The notes below the pieces were generated by a model that was given only the letters and a program-made list of their open reading frames with translations, was not told the DNA's origin and did not search any database. A stretch of DNA of 64,000 nt, from UHGV virus genome UHGV-0073881; one strand, written 5' to 3'. The stretch comes from a virus. Shown here piece after piece: positions 3,508-20,401 of the stretch (its first letter is position 1; each line of letters starts with the position of its first letter). The position numbers were made by a program, and so were the translations under genes.

Positions 3508-4065
3508 ATGAAATGCTTTCACGGTACTACTCAAGAAAACTTTTTAAACCTCATCAATGGCGGCGAAAAACCTACAGGTGCTTGGAATTGCTCTGATATG
3601 GATGGTTATTTTTACGTATACCCTGTCAGTAAGTTCTGCGACGTAGAAGAGATGGACGAAGAACAAATCACAAATGAAGGGTTGCGCAATGCTCTTGATA
3701 GTGCTACAATCACAGCAGCTATCCAAATGAAAACTCAAAATATTGTTATCTTAGAACTTGAAATTCCAGAAGATGAGTTACAAGATGATTGGTCTTGTGA
3801 GAATATGAGTGACATCGCAAGCTTTACAGAGCACTTTGATAAAGATTGGGTTAAAAAGGTTTATACAACTGAATTCAATGCAATGTATTCACCGTTTTTT
3901 GTTCCTAACTTACAAAATCGTAATTTGGGATATATTGATGAAAAGCTTGAAGAGGTTGCAACATTCATCCAAAATGCCGATGATAGCTCAATCATCTATT
4001 GCAATATGCTGGACGCAATGCAAGAAAGCTTAACAGAAAGCGTTTTAAGCGACGTTTTAGCGTAA
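3508..4065 (+). CDS. hypothetical acidic early protein (185 aa)
   Basis: ORF track; conserved leader. Confidence 0.6.
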   Translation: MKCFHGTTQENFLNLINGGEKPTGAWNCSDMDGYFYVYPVSKFCDVEEMDEEQITNEGLRNALDSATITAAIQMKTQNIVILELEIPEDELQDDWSCENMSDIASFTEHFDKDWVKKVYTTEFNAMYSPFFVPNLQNRNLGYIDEKLEEVATFIQNADDSSIIYCNMLDAMQESLTESVLSDVLA

Positions 4066-5537: not shown

Positions 5538-7100
5538 ACGTCTATGTAATAGCCCCTCTCAAATGCTTATATAAACCCTTCCCCTGTCCTTTCCAGAATC
5601 TTACAAGACCTTAAAAAGCAATAACTCTATAGCTTACTCTATAACCTCTTATCAAATCAACTTAAATATAAGCCCATAACCCGAAAGGGAAGGGCAATCC
5701 CTTAAACGCTCTATAACGCTCTATAACGGCTTATCAACTCAACTTAACCAATCATATTAACCCACTCTTAAAAGCCCTCTATAGAGCTTCATAGACCCTT
5801 AAAAGAATCTTATAAGGGGTGTAAGCTTTATCATCTCGTTAGTATCTTGTGAATAGTTAAACAGGGGGCTTGTTATTAGCTTAAAAGTATGTTATAGGGG
5901 CTTAAAAGTAGCTATAAAGTTACGTAAAAGTATCGTAAATGCTAGCCCCCTTAACATTTCTTTAACAATTTCTTAACAATCCCTACATAGTTATGCTTAT
6001 TAGAGACTTGTTAGCACCTTGTTAAATCTCTGTTAAGACTATGTTACAACCTTGTTAGATTCTTTGGAGTCCCTATATAAGCCCCTGTAAAGGGCTATAA
6101 AGAGCTATACAGTCAGTTGGGCTATAGTTACTATGGAGAACCTTAGAAATGGCTGTATAGAGCTATACAGGGCTTTTAAGAGGGCTTTTAAGAGAATCAC
6201 TGAGAAAGATAGGGAACTATAGACCAAGAGATAGTGACATGTTAACAGCTTGTTAAAAAGGTTAAACACTTGTTAGGAACTTGTTAATAATCTTAACAAA
6301 ATAACTCTTAACATTTAACTACTCAACTCTTGTTAGCAATCTGTTAAGACTCTGTAAAGACTATGCAACAACTGTTAAGCACTTGTTACAATCTTGTTAG
6401 CTCTGTTAAGGGTCTATTAAGAACTCTGAAGAGATGTTAAGAGGATGTAGTAACTGTTAAGAAATTGTTAATGATATTTTAAGATTTTGCAAAGGGTATG
6501 TTACAGGGATGTTAAGGGCTACCAAGCAGATATACACCCTAGACAGATATTTTTCAGTTCCTTCAAAGAACCTAAATAAAACACTTGACAGTCTATTTTA
6601 TAAAAATTTTATAGAACTGAATAACTATCTATACACTATCTAGTATAAAACAGGTAATAACAGGCTTATAAGATACCTTGTTAGTACCGTGTTAGACCTT
6701 GTAGGATAAGCCTTAGAAGGGAATACCTGTTTAGTGCTATATAACAGTCTATATAGAGGCTTAGTAAACCCTAGTGAACCATCTATAGAGAGTCACATAG
6801 TTAACATAGAGATTAAGATGGGTATAGGAGCTTCTAAGGGGTTGTTAAGATGTTAGGAAGGGGGTTGTATAGGTGGTTAAGAAGGCTTGTTAGAGAGCTT
6901 GTTAGAGGGCTATTTAGAAGGGGCTATACAGTTCACTATATCGAATCACTAGAAAGAGACTAAGAGGCTATATAGATACTATATAATACTATATAGAGAG
7001 TATGCTTAGATAGGTTGTTTAGAAGGGCTAGATATTTTATCACATATCATGGTGACCCAAGATGAACGTAGTGAATCCAAATTTTATAAAATTATAAATT
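5538..7100. repeat. ORF-free repeat-dense region (short TTGTTA / CTGTTAAG / CTTGTTAG and CTATACAG / CTATATAG repeats)
   Basis: no ORF of 60 aa or more on either strand; dozens of short direct and palindromic repeats, densest 5930-6480 and 6650-7000. Confidence 0.6.
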
Positions 7101-7114
7101 TCGTAAATTTTACT

Positions 7115-7165
7115 CAATAAAAAGCCCCTATGAGATAGATTCTATCGAATCCATATTAAGGGGCT
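7115..7165 (-). terminator. terminator-like hairpin ending the leftward block
   Basis: minus strand: stem AGCCCCT...AGGGGCT followed by TTTTATT; long loop. Confidence 0.4.
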
Positions 7166-7417
7166 GTAAAGTTCTTAGCAAAGGTTATCTATGATAGCCT
7201 GAATAGCTGGAATAGTTGTGTGATAAAAATGAGTGTTTCCATTATGAGCTTCTCTCTCTTGTAACATGATAGAGTGACCCTTTACAGGGAAGCATTGAAT
7301 GTGATAACGATTCCCGTTAAATATTGCTCCACCACCTGAACAGAAACCTTCCAAGACTGACTTAGCAAGGAACTCATTTTCGCTACCTCTAAAGAGGGGC
7401 TGTTACACCCCTTTAAA

Positions 7418-7654
7418 TCACTCTTCAGTCTTCTTCTCATCAGACTTTTTAGTTTTCTTATCAACTTTCTTAGGCTTCTCTTCAACCTTAGCTTCTGGTT
7501 CATTTTGAGTTGCCTGAATAGCAATGTCCAGAAGTTTTGCCAAGTCTGATTTAATCACCGTAACAGGTTGCTCATTGTAGTAGCTCTTGTCAAGGTGCTC
7601 TTTCAGTTCATTAAGAGAGCTAAAGCCGAATGGCTGGATAGGTGTCTTAATCAT
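7418..7654 (-). CDS. hypothetical protein with K/E-rich C-terminus (78 aa)
   Basis: ORF track; preferred over overlapping 7282-7524. Confidence 0.5.
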   Translation of the reverse strand: MIKTPIQPFGFSSLNELKEHLDKSYYNEQPVTVIKSDLAKLLDIAIQATQNEPEAKVEEKPKKVDKKTKKSDEKKTEE

Positions 7655-7728
7655 TCATTACTCCTTATAAGCATCTTCCAAAATGTGTTTATTAATCATC
7701 TCTGCAATTGCATAACGAATACAGATAA

Positions 7729-8235
7729 CTAGAATTTTAGGTTGCATTCTTTACTCACTTCTTCAAATTTCTGTTCATGTTCCAAGGCTTTCTTCCTGTG
7801 GAACCTCATTCTTAAGTAGGCTGCAATCATACCACCTACAGGAAGCACATACAAGAACCAAATTTCTTCGATTTTGTTTATTGACTGCTTAATAGTCATT
7901 TCTTGACCGTAAAAAGCTGTTATAGCCACTGCACAGACCATGATAAAGAACATTGCCAAGAATACAATCATTCCTGCATAGGCTCTTACGTGCTGTTCTG
8001 ATAAAGTCTGCTTGTTCTTTGCATCAATCAGTCCGTTGTAGTCATTTGAAAAGTCCCTGTAGAAAGCTTTCAAGTATTCTCGGCTATAACCTTCAAAACA
8101 ACCTGTGCCAAACCAATCATCCCCTCCAAAGTGGGAAATTACACCCGTTTCACCGTTTGCTTTAACAATCTTGATAGAAACATGGTGCTTAGATTTTGTA
8201 TGGGAAATCTGGTCTCTTTCTTCTAACATAATCAT
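7729..8235 (-). CDS. hypothetical membrane protein (168 aa)
   Basis: ORF track; ATG start; two hydrophobic segments in C-terminal half. Confidence 0.6.
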   Translation of the reverse strand: MIMLEERDQISHTKSKHHVSIKIVKANGETGVISHFGGDDWFGTGCFEGYSREYLKAFYRDFSNDYNGLIDAKNKQTLSEQHVRAYAGMIVFLAMFFIMVCAVAITAFYGQEMTIKQSINKIEEIWFLYVLPVGGMIAAYLRMRFHRKKALEHEQKFEEVSKECNLKF

Positions 8236-13607: not shown

Positions 13608-13999
13608 AATAAATCCTCTTGTCTTCTATAATTCTGGAAGTACAGGTACAAACCAATTTCAGAGGACGAATAGTGGATTGCTTCCACACGTTTTGATTCC
13701 TTACAGTGATTGGTATTATTACCTTTCTTCTTTTTGGTAGTTTTTCTCATTAAGTCTCCTTTGTAGAAAGGCAGACCTACAGCTTTAGTAAGATGGTACA
13801 GCAATCCATACAACAAGTCAAGAAAAATTACAATATCAAAATTTTACTTGACAAGCCTCTTGACAAGGTGTAAGTTAATAAAACACTTAGAAGATAACTT
13901 AAAAGACTCTTCTAAAAAGGCTATTTAAACAGATATCTTTCTGGATATCTATCTCTTATCTTAAAAGCCTTTTAAGAAGTCTTCATAGTAGGAGTCCCA

Positions 14000-14374
14000 A
14001 TGACCAAAAGAACAAACAAAGGCCAATTCAAAAAAGGCCAATCTGGTAACCCATCAGGGAGACCAAAAGGTTCCCGTAACAAGAGTTCTCTTGTAAAAGC
14101 CCAATTAACCATTGACAACTCAGCAGAGTTTGCTGCAAAGTTGTTTGAAGCAATCGTCACCAGAGACCCTGTAAAACTTGCAGAGTTTGGTCTTTCACCA
14201 AATGATGTTCAGTTAAAATCTATGATGGAGGCTGGTAAGGTCATCATGACCCACTCAGCAGGTGAGATGAAAGCTATTGCGGTTGATAACAAGAAGAACC
14301 CTGATAACATCGGTGGTAATACTCCACAGGAGAATAAACCAACGTTCTCTCCAGTGGCAGCGATTAAAAGATAA
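14000..14374 (+). CDS. hypothetical basic protein with GNPSGRPKGS motif (124 aa)
   Basis: ORF track; RBS TAGGAG 7 nt before ATG. Confidence 0.6.
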   Translation: MTKRTNKGQFKKGQSGNPSGRPKGSRNKSSLVKAQLTIDNSAEFAAKLFEAIVTRDPVKLAEFGLSPNDVQLKSMMEAGKVIMTHSAGEMKAIAVDNKKNPDNIGGNTPQENKPTFSPVAAIKR

Positions 14375-14454
14375 TTTAAAAAGGTGTTGACAGACTTTAT
14401 TGGTTACTTTAGAGTCTGTCACATCAAACAACAAATGAGAGAAGAGAGATAAAC

Positions 14455-15870
14455 ATGAGCGAATTATTTGACCACTCAAACCTTCATCAAGGTCGTACTG
14501 AAAATGGTGCTGTAAACCACACCTCTTCAATGTCAGCCTCGGTAGACTTCTACAAAGCTGCTGGCTCTAGCCGCAACTACGTAGAGAAACTTCCAAATCT
14601 TTTCTACAAAGCTTTACGGGAAGATATTGATGTTGCTGTACGAATCCTGCTTCATATGCGAGATGCACGAGAAGGTATGGGTGAGCGTAAAGCGTTCAGA
14701 ACTGTTTTGACTGAATCCATCAAAAGCAACATCCTAGACTCTTTCCAAGTTCTACGTATCATGGAAAAGATTTCTGAACTAGGCCGTTATGATGACTTTA
14801 AAATCTTCGTAGGTACTCGATACGAAACAGATGCTTTCAAACAACTTGAAGCAGCACTGTTAGACCCTAACACTGCACAGTTAGCTGCAAAGTGGTTGCC
14901 AAGGGTTAAGCGTCGTCATATGAACTTTGTAAACCGCTTCTGTAAGTTTGCAAAGCTAAGTCAGAAAGAGTACCGACTGTTACTGTCAGCCTTGTCTGAT
15001 ACGGTTGAGCAGAAGATTTCTGCAAATGCTTTTGGAGAGATTGATTACAGTAAAATCCCTTCACTGGCTGCTGCACGTTACCAGAAGCTTTTCGGTCGTA
15101 AAGATGGTGAGCGTTACAAAGCATACATTGAAGCTCTTACTAAAGGTGAGACCAAGATTAATGCTGGTGCAGTTTACCCATACGATGTGATTAAGTCAGT
15201 AAATTACGGAAACGCTACAGTTGCCAATGAACAATGGAAAGCTTTATCAAACTGGATGGCAGATGGTGAAAACATTCTCTGCATGACAGACGTATCAAGC
15301 TCTATGACTTGGGAAAGACACGGTGCAGTTACTGCTTTAGATATTGGTATGTCTCTTGCATTATACGTCGCAGAACGCAACACAGGTTGTTTTAAAGATG
15401 AGTTAATGGTTTACTCCAGCAGACCTCACTTTATTACACTGAGTGGAGATTTAGCACAACGTAAGCGTCAGGTAATGTCTCATGTTGAGTATGGTTCAAC
15501 TAACCTTCAAGCAGCATTTGACAGAATTCTTGAAATTGGTGTTAAAAATGGCTTGACACAAGAAGCTATGCCAAGTAAGCTTATTATCTTCTCTGATATG
15601 GAATTCAATCAGGTTGATGGTGCAAATGGTCTTACTAACTTTGAAGCAATTCAGAGTAAGTACAAAAAAGCTGGATATGAGATGCCACAACTGGTATTCT
15701 GGTACTTAGCTGACCGTAACGGTAATTGCGAAGTATCTGTAAAGGATAACGGAGTAGCAATGGTTTCAGGTTTCTCTCCAGCCACCTTAAAAGCTTTGCT
15801 TGGTGGTGAGAAGTTTGACCCTATCAGCGTAATGCTCAAAGCAGTAATGATTGAACGCTACGATTGGTAA
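14455..15870 (+). CDS. vWA-domain protein with Ro60/TROVE-like architecture (471 aa)
   Basis: C-terminal vWA with MIDAS motif DVSSSM, GSTN and IIFSDMEF segments; order and spacing resemble the Ro60 C-terminal half; N-terminal 270 aa helical domain unassigned. Confidence 0.7.
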   Translation: MSELFDHSNLHQGRTENGAVNHTSSMSASVDFYKAAGSSRNYVEKLPNLFYKALREDIDVAVRILLHMRDAREGMGERKAFRTVLTESIKSNILDSFQVLRIMEKISELGRYDDFKIFVGTRYETDAFKQLEAALLDPNTAQLAAKWLPRVKRRHMNFVNRFCKFAKLSQKEYRLLLSALSDTVEQKISANAFGEIDYSKIPSLAAARYQKLFGRKDGERYKAYIEALTKGETKINAGAVYPYDVIKSVNYGNATVANEQWKALSNWMADGENILCMTDVSSSMTWERHGAVTALDIGMSLALYVAERNTGCFKDELMVYSSRPHFITLSGDLAQRKRQVMSHVEYGSTNLQAAFDRILEIGVKNGLTQEAMPSKLIIFSDMEFNQVDGANGLTNFEAIQSKYKKAGYEMPQLVFWYLADRNGNCEVSVKDNGVAMVSGFSPATLKALLGGEKFDPISVMLKAVMIERYDW

Positions 15871-15888
15871 AAAGTTTTAAAAAGGGTA

Positions 15889-15917
15889 TTGACAAAGTGT
15901 TTAATACCCTTTAATAT
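15889..15917 (+). promoter_or_regulatory. sigma70-like promoter upstream of tRNA array (TTGACA-N17-TAATAT)
   Basis: -35 TTGACA 15889-15894, 17-nt spacer, -10 TAATAT 15912-15917; inside a hairpin AGGGTATT/AATACCCT. Confidence 0.5.
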
Positions 15918-15978
15918 GTTCTACATAGAAACGAAAAAGAAGTTTTCTGAAATAAATCAAATTATTTTAAAAAACCTC

Positions 15979-16008
15979 TTGACAAACACTAAAAAATAGT
16001 GTTATAGT
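15979..16008 (+). promoter_or_regulatory. sigma70-like promoter upstream of tRNA array (TTGACA-N17-TTATAG)
   Basis: -35 TTGACA 15979-15984, -10 TTATAGT at 16002-16008, about 28 nt before first tRNA. Confidence 0.5.
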
Positions 16009-16035
16009 TGTTACATAGGTTGTTAAAAAGATTAT

Positions 16036-16112
16036 CTCTGTTTAGCTCAGTTTGGTAGAGCGTTCCGTTTGGGGCGGTAAGGCCAGAGGTTCAAGTCCTC
16101 TAACAGAGACCA
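16036..16112 (+). tRNA. tRNA-Pro (anticodon TGG), isotype tentative
   Basis: acceptor CTCTGTT/AACAGAG, D-stem GCTC/GAGC, T-arm AGAGG-TTCAAGT-CCTCT, anticodon loop TTTGGGG, CCA encoded. Confidence 0.7.
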
Positions 16113-16119
16113 AATTAAT

Positions 16120-16194
16120 GTCGTAGAAGGCAAATGGTTAGCCACCTGACCTTCAATCAGTTGCTCGCGGGTTCGAATCCCGTCTACGACTCCA
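16120..16194 (+). tRNA. tRNA, anticodon TTC (Glu?), isotype uncertain
   Basis: acceptor GTCGTAG/CTACGAC, T-arm GCGGG-TTCGAAT-CCCGT, CCA encoded; anticodon loop CCTTCAA has C at position 33. Confidence 0.6.
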
Positions 16195-16200
16195 AATTTG

Positions 16201-16269
16201 ACAGAAGACCAAATACAGCAAACAACTTTTACTTTTCGCGCATAGAAAACATAAAAAGCTTGGTCTGGT
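16201..16269 (+). repeat. tRNA-array spacer module A (ACAGAAGACC ... ACAGCAA ... GGTCTGGT)
   Basis: conserved 5-prime ACAGAAGACC and 3-prime GGTCTGGT ends with AT-rich core; 4 copies in array. Confidence 0.6.
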
Positions 16270-16279
16270 CATTAAGAAT

Positions 16280-16356
16280 TGCGGGTATAGAGAAAGGGCG
16301 TCTCACATGTCTCATTAGCATGGTATCGGTAGGTTCGACTCCTGCACCCGCCTCCA
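16280..16356 (+). tRNA. tRNA-Met-like (anticodon CAT)
   Basis: acceptor TGCGGGT/ACCCGCC (1:72 mismatch), T-arm GTAGG-TTCGACT-CCTGC, loop CTCATTA, CCA encoded; weak D-stem. Confidence 0.6.
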
Positions 16357-16361
16357 AATTT

Positions 16362-16425
16362 ACAGAAGACCGTTTACAGCAATTCAAACAATTTTATCGG
16401 AAAATTAAAATGAATACGGTCTGGT
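16362..16425 (+). repeat. tRNA-array spacer module B
   Basis: ACAGAAGACCGTTTACAGCAA ... ACGGTCTGGT. Confidence 0.6.
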
Positions 16426-16437
16426 AATGTTAAACAT

Positions 16438-16514
16438 GGTTAGGAAGCACATAAGGCATGTGCGGTCGGCTGTTAACCGAATGGCACAGGGTTCGAATCC
16501 CTGACTAACCGCCA
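16438..16514 (+). tRNA. tRNA-Asn (anticodon GTT)
   Basis: acceptor GGTTAGG/ACTAACC, D-stem GCAC/GTGC, T-arm CAGGG-TTCGAAT-CCCTG, loop CTGTTAA, CCA encoded. Confidence 0.75.
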
Positions 16515-16524
16515 AAATTTAAAT

Positions 16525-16612
16525 GCGTCGTTATCCCGTAGATGGAAGCGGTGGTGACTGTAAATCACTTGTCATTACGACTCGGTAGGTTCGACTCCTT
16601 CACGGCGCACCA
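16525..16612 (+). tRNA. tRNA-Tyr (anticodon GTA), class II with long variable arm
   Basis: 88 nt; acceptor GCGTCGT/ACGGCGC, anticodon stem GGTGA/TCACT loop CTGTAAA, T-loop TTCGACT, CCA encoded. Confidence 0.7.
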
Positions 16613-16618
16613 AATAAA

Positions 16619-16696
16619 GGTTATGTAGTTTAATCTGGTTAAAATACCTCCCTGTCACGGAGGAAGATGTGGGTTCGAATCCCATCGTAACCGCCA
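16619..16696 (+). tRNA. tRNA-Asp (anticodon GTC)
   Basis: acceptor GGTTATG/CGTAACC, anticodon stem CCTCC/GGAGG loop CTGTCAC, T-arm GTGGG-TTCGAAT-CCCAT, CCA encoded. Confidence 0.75.
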
Positions 16697-16754
16697 ATTT
16701 TGAGAAGGGCTTTTTAGCCCCTCCCTTAAAGAGTTCTTGCGAGTATTCTTTAAA

Positions 16755-16835
16755 GGAGCAGAAGACCAAATTCAGCAAGCAACAAAAATATTTCAAGCCA
16801 ATTAATTTGAAAAATTTAAAACTTGGTCTGGTTCC
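16755..16835 (+). repeat. tRNA-array spacer module C
   Basis: GCAGAAGACCAAATTCAGCAA ... CTTGGTCTGGT. Confidence 0.55.
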
Positions 16836-16844
16836 AACAAATTT

Positions 16845-16969
16845 ACAGAAGACCGTTTACAGCAAGTTAAACAATCTAATTCTCTATGAAAGAAAGGGCG
16901 AAGGTTCGATTCCTTCACACGTTACGGCGTGTTGGTGTAATGGCAGCACTTAAGATGATACGGTCTGGT
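16845..16969 (+). repeat. tRNA-array spacer module D, carrying a tRNA-like T-arm and acceptor-like hairpin
   Basis: ACAGAAGACCGTTTACAGCAA ... GAAGG-TTCGATT-CCTTC (16900-16916), ACACG-TTACGG-CGTGT hairpin (16917-16932) ... ACGGTCTGGT; no full cloverleaf. Confidence 0.55.
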
Positions 16970-17118
16970 AATCCTCTTTGCAGTGACTTATGGAGCTAAT
17001 ATATCGTCCCATGAGTGCCGATGAATCTCTTGAGCATGATTCTAGATTAGCTTACTAAGAGATGACTCTACAAACCCTTTAGCAAGGTTTGCGTAGGTTA
17101 CTGCAAAGATGATTTAAT

Positions 17119-17194
17119 GGAAGTGTAGCAGAATGGTGATGCGGCAGACTTTTAATCTGACAGGCGATGGGTTCGAATCCCTCCACTTCTACCA
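17119..17194 (+). tRNA. tRNA-Lys (anticodon TTT)
   Basis: acceptor GGAAGTG/CACTTCT, anticodon loop CTTTTAA, T-loop TTCGAAT, CCA encoded. Confidence 0.7.
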
Positions 17195-17279
17195 AATTCG
17201 CCCTTAATTGAAGAATACCTACTTCGCGGCTGGAAACACCCACGAAAAATCAATTCTTCTCCAAAGGGCAACTTATTAC

Positions 17280-17356
17280 GGTTCAGTCGCAGATAAGGTA
17301 ATGCAAGGGTTTCATAAGCCCTATGAATGTGGGTTCGACTCCCATCTGAACCTCCA
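17280..17356 (+). tRNA. tRNA with anticodon CAT (Met or Ile2)
   Basis: acceptor GGTTCAG/CTGAACC, anticodon stem AGGGT/GCCCT loop TTCATAA, T-arm GTGGG-TTCGACT-CCCAT, CCA encoded. Confidence 0.75.
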
Positions 17357-17358
17357 AT

Positions 17359-17433
17359 TGTGGGTTAGCATAAATGGTAATGCAAACGGCTGATAACCGT
17401 TAGAAGAGGGTTCGATACCCTCACCTACAACCA
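17359..17433 (+). tRNA. tRNA-Ile (anticodon GAT)
   Basis: acceptor TGTGGGT/ACCTACA, D-stem GCA/TGC, anticodon stem AACGG/CCGTT loop CTGATAA, T-arm GAGGG-TTCGATA-CCCTC, CCA encoded. Confidence 0.75.
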
Positions 17434-17448
17434 ATTCCAATAAAGTTG

Positions 17449-17477
17449 TTGACATTAACATGTGACCACTTTATAGT
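17449..17477 (+). promoter_or_regulatory. strong sigma70-like promoter inside tRNA array (TTGACA-N17-TATAGT)
   Basis: -35 TTGACA 17449-17454, 17-nt spacer, -10 TATAGT 17472-17477; followed by about 320 nt with no ORF and no canonical tRNA. Confidence 0.55.
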
Positions 17478-17801
17478 AACTAAAATACTTCATAATATGT
17501 ATAATTCAAACACCAATACATGAGCGTTAGACGTAACACAATGTGGGGAAATTTGTTGTACATATTCTGAATAGTTTTCGTTAGTGTAGCGTCTATTTTG
17601 CAAACTTAAAAATAAATGCAAACGATAATGTTTTTCTGGCAGTAGCTTAATAGGCTAAACACCAGTGAGGTCTTCCAATCCCTCATCAAAGAATTTGGCG
17701 TACTAGCCCACGGTATGATTAATAAAGTGGGCGACATTCTAAAGGGTATCCCTTATGGGGCTTGGCTTAAATGCAATGAGTACCCTTTAAAATGTTAATT
17801 A

Positions 17802-17883
17802 CGGGGCGTATCTCAGCGGTCTTCTAAACCGCCGTTAACCGAGTAAGTGGAGTATGCGGGTTCGAGTCCTGCCGCCTCGACCA
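17802..17883 (+). tRNA. atypical tRNA-like gene (Arg TCT-like anticodon arm), possible pseudogene
   Basis: acceptor CGGGGCG/CGCCTCG, T-arm GCGGG-TTCGAGT-CCTGC, CCA encoded; stem GCGGT/ACCGC with loop CTTCTAA but no canonical D-arm and a 23-nt segment before the T-arm. Confidence 0.4.
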
Positions 17884-17898
17884 ATTTTGGATGAAATC

Positions 17899-18246
17899 AT
17901 GAAGACTTGTATTAGGTGCAAACTTAGCAAGGATGAAAATGATTTCTACATGAAAGATGGTAGGAGAACTCATTCATACTGTAAAAAGTGTGTTAATGAG
18001 CAAACCATAGAAAGACAAAGAGCACTTAAACTTTCAGCTGTTGAGTACAAAGGTGGGGTTTGTCATGATTGTGGTAAAAGGTATCATCCAGCAGTGTATG
18101 ACTTCCATCATTTGAATCCTTCAGAGAAAGATTTTAACATTGGTCATAGAAAAAGTCTTAAGTTCTCTCAGGAGCTAAAGAACGAACTTGACAAATGTGT
18201 TTTGCTATGTTCAAATTGCCATAGGGTAAGACATGCAAAGTATTAG
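17899..18246 (+). CDS. HNH endonuclease (zinc-finger plus HNH) embedded in tRNA array
   Basis: CxxC...CxxC and FHHLNPSEKD...LLCSNCHRVRH motifs; ORF track 17854 start lies inside the tRNA, so start moved to ATG 17899. Confidence 0.8.
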   Translation: MKTCIRCKLSKDENDFYMKDGRRTHSYCKKCVNEQTIERQRALKLSAVEYKGGVCHDCGKRYHPAVYDFHHLNPSEKDFNIGHRKSLKFSQELKNELDKCVLLCSNCHRVRHAKY

Positions 18247-18383
18247 TTAGCAGATTGCTTAGACGACCTTAACGGGTCTCCTGTAAGGAGGTGGTCTGTA
18301 TCTCATGTTTCCAGAGCATGTAAAAATATTCTGAGAAGGGGCTTTACAGTGTTGTGATAATACGGTAAGCTTCGAATTATAAT

Positions 18384-18466
18384 ATGGGACGATGTTAAGA
18401 CTCTAAGGCATGAGCAACGGCTTCCAACACCGTTTCAAAGGGGTTCAACTCCTCCGTCCCATGCCA
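18384..18466 (+). tRNA. tRNA, possibly Trp (anticodon CCA); atypical
   Basis: acceptor ATGGGAC/GTCCCAT, T-loop TTCAACT, CCA encoded; stem AACGG/CCGTT around TTCCAAC; extra nucleotides between acceptor and D region. Confidence 0.45.
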
Positions 18467-18478
18467 AAGTCTTATTAG

Positions 18479-18567
18479 GGGTAGGTAGCGGCTAATGGTA
18501 GCCAAACTGTCTTGAAAACAGTTGCCACTGTAGAGATACGGTGAGGGTTCGACTCCTTTACTTACCG
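18479..18567 (+). tRNA. tRNA-Ser (anticodon TGA), class II
   Basis: acceptor GGTAGGT/ACTTACC, D-stem GGC/GCC, anticodon stem ACTGT/ACAGT loop CTTGAAA, long variable arm, T-loop TTCGACT; CCA not encoded. Confidence 0.7.
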
Positions 18568-20240: not shown

Positions 20241-20317
20241 GTGGCCTTATCATAAATGGATAATGACCCATGCTGTGAACATGGTCTATACGGGTTCGAT
20301 TCCCGTAGGTCACCCCA
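20241..20317 (+). tRNA. tRNA-His (anticodon GTG)
   Basis: acceptor GTGGCCT/AGGTCAC with C73, D-stem TCAT/ATGA, anticodon stem CCATG/CATGG loop CTGTGAA, T-arm ACGGG-TTCGATT-CCCGT, CCA encoded. Confidence 0.75.
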
Positions 20318-20324
20318 ATTTTAA

Positions 20325-20401
20325 TAGCTCAATTAGCTTATATGGTTAAAGCGCGTGTCTGAAAAACATGAGAACAGGGTTCAAATCCCGATGGGCTACC
20401 A
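20325..20401 (+). tRNA. tRNA-Phe (anticodon GAA), irregular acceptor/D junction
   Basis: anticodon stem CGTGT/ACATG loop CTGAAAA, D-stem GCTT/AAGC, acceptor TAGCTCA/TGGGCTA, T-loop TTCAAAT, CCA at 20399-20401. Confidence 0.6.

Follow-up and report, generated by a model that had tools for sequence, protein, structure and literature searches.

A Ro60-like protein of a FelixO1-like phage and four tRNA-spacer RNAs that are probably its partners

UHGV virus genome UHGV-0073881 was analysed as a stretch of 64,000 nucleotides, here called the window, around the open-reading frame (ORF) at 14455-15870 (+) and the tRNA array that follows it. The ORF encodes a 471-amino-acid protein whose modelled architecture is that of Ro60, and four RNA elements set in spacers of the array are probably its partners, with which it would form a Ro-Y-type particle; that the RNAs are expressed, processed and physically bound by the protein, and that the particle then has an activity of its own, is what we infer. 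A sequence-only reading of this DNA had proposed an Rsr/Y-RNA-type module at this place, an interpretation that is supported by the Ro60 fold of the protein and a YrlA-type element at 16843-16972 and that erred in detail on which tRNA mimics are involved.

The 471-amino-acid frame named in that reading was confirmed, and its product belongs to the DUF2828/DUF7788 family, with both Pfam profiles above their curated thresholds: DUF7788 (PF25043) matches residues 275-455 at 147.5 bits (cut-off 27.1) and DUF2828 (PF11443), a profile that the sequence-only reading had put forward as a check, matches residues 170-265 at 95.6 bits (cut-off 29). Over its full length the protein matches PHROG 850, 'RNA-binding protein' (E = 4e-175). 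Database records label the FelixO1 ortholog, ORF42, as 'RNA-binding protein', 'vWFA protein' or 'DUF2828 family protein', homologs in cluster-L mycobacteriophages carry the annotation 'Ro-like RNA binding protein', and the family occurs in 710 deposited phage genomes. NCBIfam and PADLOC scans of the protein gave nothing informative. An AlphaFold2 model was built from an alignment of 42 homologs with 41-88% identity, and reached a mean predicted local distance difference test score (pLDDT) of 89.9 and a predicted template-modelling score (pTM) of 0.89. In a Foldseek comparison with the PDB, the 12 best matches of this model were all Ro60, each spanning the whole protein, and included Xenopus Ro60 (template-modelling score 0.65-0.67), the Ro60 of Thermus phage phiLo and Deinococcus Rsr; generic vWA domains ranked below them, at E > 1e-3. 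The structural comparison with Ro60 that had been suggested from the letters alone therefore came out in its favour, and the whole-protein model shows the Ro60-family fold, a helical-repeat ring followed by a vWA domain. The C-terminal vWA domain contains the segments DVSSSM (D279, S281, S283), GSTN (T349), FSDMEF (D381) and VSGFS, in which the sequence-only reading had recognised a MIDAS (metal-ion-dependent adhesion site). This assignment holds, as the complete MIDAS (DxSxS ... T ... D; D279, S281, S283, T349 and D381) is invariant in the 42 homologs. Because of the whole-length Foldseek matches to Ro60 and the family-invariant MIDAS residues, the product of the ORF is, as modelled, Ro60-like in architecture, without being assignable to Pfam TROVE by sequence.

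A repeat occurs four times in the spacers of the array between 16199 and 16972 and reads 5'-C-AGA-AGACCNN-WUW-CAGCAA ... NNGGUCU-G-G-3' across the spacer, with a terminal 7-bp stem AGACCNN/NNGGUCU and then UUA-CAGCAA as the signature common to the elements (Table 1). The predicted folds are alike in all four, with an outer stem of 4-5 bp, an AGA/G internal loop, the 7-bp inner stem and CAGCAA unpaired. Comparison of 17 Felixounavirus loci showed that the ends of the elements are essentially invariant and the interiors variable, element 1 having two unrelated interiors. In these loci the inner stem carries a compensatory change (CAA:UUG versus CGU:ACG), the outer stem of element 2 changes from UUAC:GUAA to UUGC:GCAA in six of them, and single stem changes that give G·U pairs are also seen. 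Element 4 is the long form, in which the closing stem AGACCGU/ACGGUCU and UUA-CAGCAA are followed by a T-arm at 16900-16916 (GAAGG-UUCGAUU-CCUUC), an acceptor hairpin at 16917-16932, U8-G9 and a D-arm at 16935-16949 (GUGU-AAUGGCA-GCAC). The order of its core is thus permuted, with T-arm, closed acceptor hairpin and D-arm in succession, and a structural descriptor matches it at 16900-16949. The acceptor hairpin covaries between phages (ACACG:CGUGU, ACUCG:CGAGU, ACCCUUC:GAAGGGU). The terminal stem, the permuted order of T-arm, closed acceptor, U8 and D-arm, and a position on the gene's strand, 970 nt downstream of the gene, give element 4 the architecture of YrlA.

The same design recurs in distant phages beside genes for related proteins. 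Scanning IMG/VR with this alignment of the family yielded 80 loci, 15 of them Felixounavirus-like and 65 with proteins 39-45% identical. The descriptor of the permuted core (T-arm, closed hairpin, two nucleotides, D-arm) matched on the gene strand only, with clean examples 50-200 nt from the gene in loci L018, L024, L027, L050 and L054 and in the cluster-L mycobacteriophage Rumpelstiltskin. These distant long forms, and many shorter gene-adjacent hairpins, have a 7-bp terminal stem starting from A/U-G-R, then 2-4 nt, CAGCAA, and a G that follows the 3' strand. The commonest phage version is AGGUUCC-UUA-CAGCAA ... GGAACCU-G. Two covariance models were built from distant phages with every Felixounavirus sequence excluded: 28 short elements went into R1 and 4 long ones into R2. 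On the 64-kb window the three best matches of R1 were elements 2, 3 and 1, the next match standing at E 0.43, and the best match of R2 was element 4 over its full length, followed by tandem-tRNA junctions at no more than 25.6 bits. In the distant loci, searched over 690 kb, R1 had 50 matches, every one on the gene strand, and the 36 matches of R2 to distant loci were all on that strand too; these R2 matches included Aeromonas phage Aeh1-type contigs, Rumpelstiltskin (49.6 bits for the long form), FelixO1 and Bas63. Of the 48 R1 matches in the IMG/VR loci, 34 lay within 500 nt after the stop codon and 5 within 500 nt before the start, and at least 43 of the 65 distant loci had a match to R1 or R2. 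The elements occur in tandem sets of 2-5 among the loci: three R1 elements stand just 5' of the gene in Listeria phage LP-125 (best E 1.5e-7) and two between tRNA-Met and the gene in Campylobacter phage F357 (best E 3.8e-5), and Vibrio phage ValKK3 has one at the start of the gene (E 0.007). As a negative control we used the tRNA region of phage T5, a 30-kb stretch with 25 tRNAs, 8 annotated stable RNAs and no DUF2828 gene; R1 found no match there (best E 6.1), and R2 gave weak matches at tandem tRNAs only.

The interiors of the long forms differ between phages. That of L058 (7183-7305) is tRNA-like with its arms in normal, not permuted, sequence (D-arm, anticodon-like arm, T-arm), and those of L069, L073, L075 and L080 have no likeness to tRNA, which makes the variable module a diverse one. 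In 23 of the 65 distant loci there are genes for tRNA or transfer-messenger RNA (tmRNA) no more than 5 kb away, without exception on the gene strand, and ARAGORN called tmRNA genes within 5 kb of the DUF2828 gene and on its strand in L073 (1968), L076 (8710), L079 (7760) and L080 (10284). In Listeria phage LP-125 (L088) a ROOL RNA, at 87.4 bits against a gathering score of 99.1, lies between the tRNA array and the three tandem elements, which are Class-I-like, and a gene for an RtcB-like RNA ligase lies 1.3 kb downstream of the DUF2828 gene (coordinates of this RNA-centred neighbourhood: 2429-2980, 3619-3887 and 6813-8024).

The established Rfam models see part of this. The Rfam YrlA model recognises three of the distant elements from which R2 was built (41.4, 38.2 and 35.8 bits; E 1e-5, 8e-5 and 4e-4), all below its gathering score of 69, and gives Rumpelstiltskin 21.4 bits. 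On the window the Rfam Y_RNA and YrlA models gave nothing credible, the only YrlA match (21.5 bits, 20263-20387) overlapping the tandem tRNA-His/tRNA-Phe, a known type of artefact. A Y RNA/YrlA covariance scan had been among the checks proposed from the sequence; it failed with the Rfam models and succeeded with R2, which finds the YrlA-type element at 16843-16972 (E = 1.9e-6).

Several points weigh against a Ro60 protein with these RNAs as partners. The TROVE profile (PF05731), which the sequence-only reading had expected to inform on the N-terminal part, is not matched by the protein at E <= 1 in Pfam, and neither phmmer nor the family profile found a Ro60 chain in the PDB at E <= 10. Element 4 is not reported by Rfam YrlA (RF02553) at E <= 10 when 16700-17120 is scanned, and so stays short of the gathering score of 69. 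The YrlA motif GNCGAAN0-1G is not conserved here, the 5' motif being UUA-CAGCAA instead; a GGCGAAG at 16896-16902 is not kept in FelixO1 or L003. In the window 330-1100 nt separate the elements from the gene, with a terminator-like hairpin and separate promoters in between, and about one third of the distant loci have no match within 5 kb. Covariation of the long form also has to be read with care: among 25 distinct elements, 96.5% of cells are paired versus about 40% in slid controls, and compensatory changes are seen in 23 of 24 pairs, in an alignment that was fitted to the model and so leans its way. The R1 seeds were picked by a descriptor that demands a perfect stem, and the 100% pairing in the R1 seed alignment is circular because of this choice; these pairing statistics were dropped as evidence. 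A loose stem-CAGCAA descriptor was likewise set aside, since 183 plus-strand versus 88 minus-strand matches imply a high background, and it was therefore used for seed collection only. The non-circular evidence is the bias in strand and position, the matches outside the seeds, the matches in the window and the T5 negative control.

A further point against the RNAs comes from an ortholog. Gp130 of Bas63 (Escherichia phage JohannRWettstein, MZ501086) is 84% identical to the window's protein and equal in length, and its surroundings are the same, with a DUF5681 gene upstream and tRNA-Pro 165 nt downstream. The PhageMaP preprint (bioRxiv 10.1101/2024.10.10.617714) reports that gp130 is structurally similar to Ro60, that its gene lies directly 5' of tRNA genes, some of which are suggested as possible Y RNAs, and that deletion of g130 makes Bas63 sensitive to the ppl defence, with rescue by complementation. 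In the same preprint gp130 alone, plasmid-borne or inserted into T7, restores growth of T7 on ppl, and the anti-ppl activity is therefore independent of phage RNAs. Since T7 has none of these RNAs, the protein might act by itself as an anti-defence factor, for instance as a protein that binds or sequesters the nuclease of ppl or an RNA of the host. The spacer elements would then be unrelated to it and would help the maturation of the tRNA precursor, as signals for processing or as structural spacers; elements 1 and 2 occupy their tRNA-tRNA spacers exactly, with outer stems that abut the tRNA ends, and phage tRNA arrays hold other stable RNAs of unknown function, as annotated in T5. We consider this unlikely, because the stem-CAGCAA module also stands beside the gene in loci without any tRNA within 5 kb (L023, L029, L031), is always on the gene strand and absent from the T5 tRNA array, and because Rfam YrlA matches long forms beside homologs of the protein.

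The position of the elements in other phages suggests a different alternative, namely that the stem-CAGCAA elements are cis-acting signals, such as autoregulatory elements of untranslated regions or stabilisers of transcript ends, instead of free RNAs. Most distant loci have the element immediately 3' of the stop codon (the 34 of 48 R1 matches given above) or just 5' of the start, as such signals would be. In the window and all Felixounavirus loci, however, a terminator-like hairpin and promoter-like sites intervene and the elements are interleaved with tRNAs; they come in tandem sets, one of them has a complete permuted tRNA-like domain, and the small RNAs of this design in dictyostelids are abundant and free-standing (PMC7919456). 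A role confined to cis is, on this evidence, improbable.

The sequence-only reading had looked for the partner RNAs among three incomplete tRNA-like elements. One of these, 16900-16932, stands as the T-arm and closed acceptor hairpin of the 130-nt element at 16843-16972; the other two, 17640-17700 and 17802-17883, do not stand as partners, and the short elements 1-3 had been overlooked. That Y RNAs mimic tRNAs (PMC4201824) speaks for degenerate tRNAs as partners, as does the state of the gene at 17800-17883, which is tRNA-like at only 31.7 bits, with anticodon arm, T-arm and acceptor stem intact, a degenerate D-arm and a long variable region. In relatives, however, ARAGORN calls tRNA-Arg(tct) at this position, so that 17802-17883 corresponds to tRNA-Arg(UCU), and 17640-17700 is not convincing as a tRNA-like element, with a 13.6-bit match to a fragment of tmRNA and no significant tRNA or Y RNA score in Rfam. 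Neither has the terminal stem with CAGCAA or the permuted T-arm/acceptor/D-arm order. We therefore regard degenerate tRNAs as very improbable partners and the four spacer elements as the likely ones.

With the four spacer RNAs as partners of the Ro60-like protein, the module might work as follows. The promoter-like site at 15979-16008 would drive transcription of the four RNAs together with the first part of the tRNA array, which would be set free as the tRNAs on either side are processed by RNase P and 3' trimming; placement in the spacers would give the RNAs defined ends and couple their expression to that of the phage tRNAs. The protein would recognise a module formed by the RNA ends, that is, the 7-bp stem (5'-AGACCNN / NNGGUCU-3'), the unpaired UUA-CAGCAA inside it on the 5' side and the G after the 3' strand, which would replace the stem plus CGAA/GGUCCGA that canonical Ro60 uses for Y RNAs. 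Three of the RNAs (~65-75 nt) carry a variable loop only, like YrlB or the dictyostelid Class I RNAs, whereas in the fourth (~130 nt), as in YrlA, there is a tRNA-like domain in circularly permuted form. Ro60 proteins bind Y RNA and, through the ring, misfolded RNA. If Rsr-YrlA is a guide, the variable parts may gate the ring or tether it to other factors, and the particle may act on structured or damaged RNAs during infection, with tRNAs as the obvious candidates. A role in RNA repair or quality control is hinted at by the tRNA and tmRNA neighbours in 23 of the 65 loci and by the RtcB gene of LP-125.

The Ro60/Y-RNA interpretation is not new, because the PhageMaP preprint already suggests it for Bas63 gp130, and canonical TROVE-type phage pairs of Ro60 and Y RNA are known (PMC4201824; PMC12135203). 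The preprint names no RNA, whereas the present analysis points to four specific RNAs, none of them an annotated tRNA. The idea at the level of the protein is thus already published for an ortholog; what appears to be new is the identity of the RNAs, their CAGCAA module, its breadth over phage families and its likeness to Class I RNAs. A published guess about tRNA genes as Y RNAs would in this way become four specific RNAs with a defined recognition module, a conserved RNA companion of a protein family that annotation pipelines and Rfam families have missed, and this would give a handle on how tRNA-rich phages manage and protect RNA in infection and on how gp130-type proteins defeat ppl. In the Bas63 record (L084, 12749-13023) two small opposite-strand 'hypothetical protein' coding sequences lie over noncoding features, bas63_0137 over the YrlA-like element 4 and bas63_0138 over the long hairpin that follows it. 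Both are probably mis-annotations, and gene-level knockout data for the two may therefore report on the RNAs.

Table 1 Features in and around the Ro60-like gene and the first part of the tRNA array
Feature	Position	Strand	Basis and remarks
DUF5681 gene, upstream of Ro60-like gene	14000-14374	+	Pfam DUF5681, E = 9e-13
Promoter-like site 5' of Ro60-like gene	14387-14415	+	TTGACA-17-TAGAGT, 10/12 matches; consensus match only
Ro60-like protein gene (DUF2828 + DUF7788/vWA), 471 aa	14455-15870	+	Ortholog of FelixO1 ORF42 and Bas63 gp130
Terminator-like hairpin right after stop codon	15881-15912	+	12-bp stem, weak T-run; consensus match only
First sigma-70-like site after stop codon	15889-15917	+	10/12 matches; overlapped by terminator-like hairpin
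Strong promoter-like site for tRNA/noncoding RNA array	15979-16008	+	TTGACA-18-TATAGT with TG, 11/12 matches
tRNA-Pro	16036-16112	+	ARAGORN and Rfam
tRNA-Glu (UUC)	16120-16194	+	Rfam 53.7 bits, missed by ARAGORN; tRNA-Glu annotated in FelixO1
Element 1, short form	16199-16272	+	Fills tRNA-Glu/tRNA-Met spacer; R1 16202-16269, 27.9 bits, E = 1.6e-4
tRNA-Met	16280-16356	+	ARAGORN and Rfam
Element 2, short form	16360-16427	+	Fills tRNA-Met/tRNA-Asn spacer; R1 16363-16425, 35.8 bits, E = 1.8e-6
tRNA-Asn, tRNA-Tyr-like (16527-16607), tRNA-Asp	16438-16696	+	ARAGORN, Rfam
Element 3, short form	16755-16835	+	R1 16759-16832, 34.5 bits, E = 3.8e-6; in all Felixounavirus loci
Element 4, long form, YrlA-like, 130 nt	16843-16972	+	R2 16846-16969, 38.7 bits, E = 1.9e-6
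Long hairpin between element 4 and tRNA-Lys	16970-17114	+	21-nt inverted repeat; minimum free energy -50 kcal/mol
tRNA-Lys, tRNA-Met, tRNA-Ile	17119-17433	+	ARAGORN and Rfam
Internal promoter-like site in array	17449-17477	+	TTGACA-17-TATAGT, 11/12 matches
tmRNA-tag-like frame ANDNVFLAVA + two stops	17618-17653	+	ARAGORN resume consensus and tag
tRNA-Arg(UCU)-like gene	17800-17883	+	Rfam tRNA 31.7 bits, threshold 29

Positions 14000-18500 of the window retrieved 301 phage records by megablast, all FelixO1-like, with ~85% nucleotide identity to FelixO1, and one record, Escherichia phage pEC-M719-6WT.1, has a protein 99.2% identical to the product of the 471-amino-acid ORF. The order of DUF5681 gene and Ro60-like gene is conserved in FelixO1, Bas63 and Yersinia phage P778. 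Two promoters and a tRNA array had been read within 170 nt past the gene, and this description fits: two sigma-70-like sites were found, and the first tRNA begins at 16036, 166 nt after the stop codon. A partial R1 match at 13797-13843 (UACAGCAAUCC), in the divergent promoter region 5' of the DUF5681 gene, has E 0.43 and no convincing terminal stem, and is probably a chance match, not a fifth element.

ARAGORN found 23 tRNAs in the array, and the tRNA-Glu at 16120-16194 was found by Rfam alone; its anticodon loop is apparently CCUUCAA, which would place C at position 33. The tRNA-Tyr-like gene, absent from the sequence-only reading, is low-scoring, and FelixO1 has a counterpart that carries a pseudogene flag. 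The 145-nt hairpin that separates element 4 from tRNA-Lys is conserved among Felixounaviruses, with a closing stem of ~22 bp, compensatory changes and two interiors, and may be a processing site of RNase III type or another noncoding RNA. An ORF at 17854-18246, rich in CxxC and HH, begins in the 3' part of the tRNA-Arg-like gene; the corresponding ORF of FelixO1 has the annotation of an HNH endonuclease, and a Pfam search of the ORF gave no match. At 18385-18470 lies a degenerate tRNA-like sequence with acceptor strands AUGGGACG/CGUCCCAU and then GCCA, a T-arm and a CCA-containing anticodon-like loop; neither ARAGORN nor Rfam calls it in the window, and in L007 ARAGORN calls tRNA-Trp(cca) in that part of the array.

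The tmRNA-tag-like frame (GCA AAC GAT AAT GTT TTT CTG GCA GTA GCT TAA TAG) is outside the Ro60/Y-like module. It reads ANDNVFLAVA, to be compared with ANDENYALAA as the tag of Escherichia coli tmRNA, and is kept in all Felixounavirus loci, where changes between GAT and GAC and between TAA and TGA preserve the peptide. It lies ~140 nt downstream of the strong promoter-like site at 17449-17477, with 17640-17700 just after it. The canonical arrangement of a tmRNA tRNA-like domain was not found near 17449-17800, where Rfam tmRNA matches are weak, and the 'permuted tmRNA' that ARAGORN reports in L004, and also in the window once its threshold is lowered, was rejected as chimeric, with the T-arm of element 4 or tRNA-Ile borrowed as acceptor piece.

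The short forms of the phages resemble the Class I RNAs of Dictyostelia (Aspegren 2004). Class I RNAs are 42-65 nt long, with a 6-bp terminal stem whose structure is kept and sequence not, an invariant 5' G that pairs with the C of a 3' CUGU, and an unpaired 11-nt motif by the 5' strand; the rest of the sequence is variable, the genes are clustered, and the products are abundant free-standing small RNAs reported as unique to Dictyostelia (Kjellin 2021, PMC7919456). The published pattern in D. discoideum is GTTGRCCTTACAGCAA ... GTCAACTG (PMC5054030). The short-form design matches the Class I form GUUGRC-CUUACAGCAA...GUCAAC-UG, with the unpaired (C)CUUACAGCAA right after the 5' strand of a terminal stem of 6-7 bp, and the commonest phage version contains the 11-nt Class I motif CCUUACAGCAA verbatim. 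The structural features of the class are all present, with a length of ~60 nt, a covarying terminal stem, the G:C pair, CCUUACAGCAA after the 5' strand and a C-U-G 3' end. The Rfam model RF01414 (Dicty_Class_I_RNA) matches element 2 at 28.4 bits (16368-16423), L027 at 31.9, L023 at 28.2 and L038 at 27.5, each match being full-length and coincident with an R1 element and every phage element staying below the gathering score of 41.5; elements 1 and 3 were not reported with RF01414. The printed E values of 0.03-0.6 are corrected for 4227 families and would be ~4000-fold smaller in a single-family test. The two groups differ in setting: Class I RNAs have a eukaryotic host, independent genes and a DUSE promoter element, whereas the phage elements have a tRNA operon and sigma-70-like promoters. 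The only proven direct binder of Class I RNAs is the RRM protein Rnp1A/CIBP, with no reported link to a DUF2828 or Ro60-like protein, and a search confined to one library of papers found none linking Class I RNAs with Ro60, Y RNAs, phages or DUF2828.

Tentatively, and with more doubt than confidence, we suggest that stem-(C)CUUACAGCAA RNAs are dedicated partners of a DUF2828/DUF7788 branch of Ro60-like proteins, a second Ro-Y lineage not recognised before. It would extend over many families of phages (Felixounavirus, KVP40-like and P100-like phages, phages of Campylobacter, Staphylococcus and Enterococcus, and cluster-L mycobacteriophages) and, through the Class I RNAs, known for 20 years, to eukaryotes. 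On this view the Class I RNAs of amoebae should have a DUF2828-type protein that binds them, one candidate being DDB_G0281243, one of four proteins in the DdR-21 pull-down and without known function. Class-I-like RNAs might then be present in any organism with DUF2828 genes, such as plants; DUF2828 proteins appear in eukaryotic (plant) gene lists. The likeness would supply a concrete hypothesis on the protein partner of RNAs whose function has been a question since 2004.

Other phages also keep small stable RNAs among their tRNAs. T5 RNAI, RNAIII, RNA1, RNA2 and others are, like the RNAs proposed here, small stable RNAs, some of them tRNA-like, co-transcribed and processed with phage tRNAs; they differ in matching neither R1 nor R2. 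Species 1 and 2 of T4 are stable non-tRNA RNAs in a phage tRNA cluster. Compared with Ro60/Rsr, the window's protein is shorter (471 versus roughly 500-540 amino acids) and has no Pfam TROVE match, its presumed RNAs carry CAGCAA where YrlA and Y RNAs carry GNCGAA/CGAA, and they sit in a tRNA array, whereas the RNAs of Ro60/Rsr-Yrl systems stand alone. The likeness lies in the design. As in the Ro60/Rsr systems with YrlA/YrlB of Salmonella and Mycobacterium, where YrlA is defined by the permuted tRNA-like order (PMC4201824), and of phiLo Ro60 with Yrl1/Yrl2 (PMC12135203), a protein with a ring and a vWA domain with MIDAS is accompanied by RNAs on the same strand beside its gene. Paired RNA ends next to a short conserved unpaired motif are shared as well, and one RNA with a permuted tRNA-like domain beside shorter RNAs without it is common to the window and the Ro60/Rsr-Yrl systems. 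The RtcB gene near the DUF2828 gene of Listeria phage LP-125 likewise recalls the rsr-yrlBA-rtcBA operon of Salmonella.

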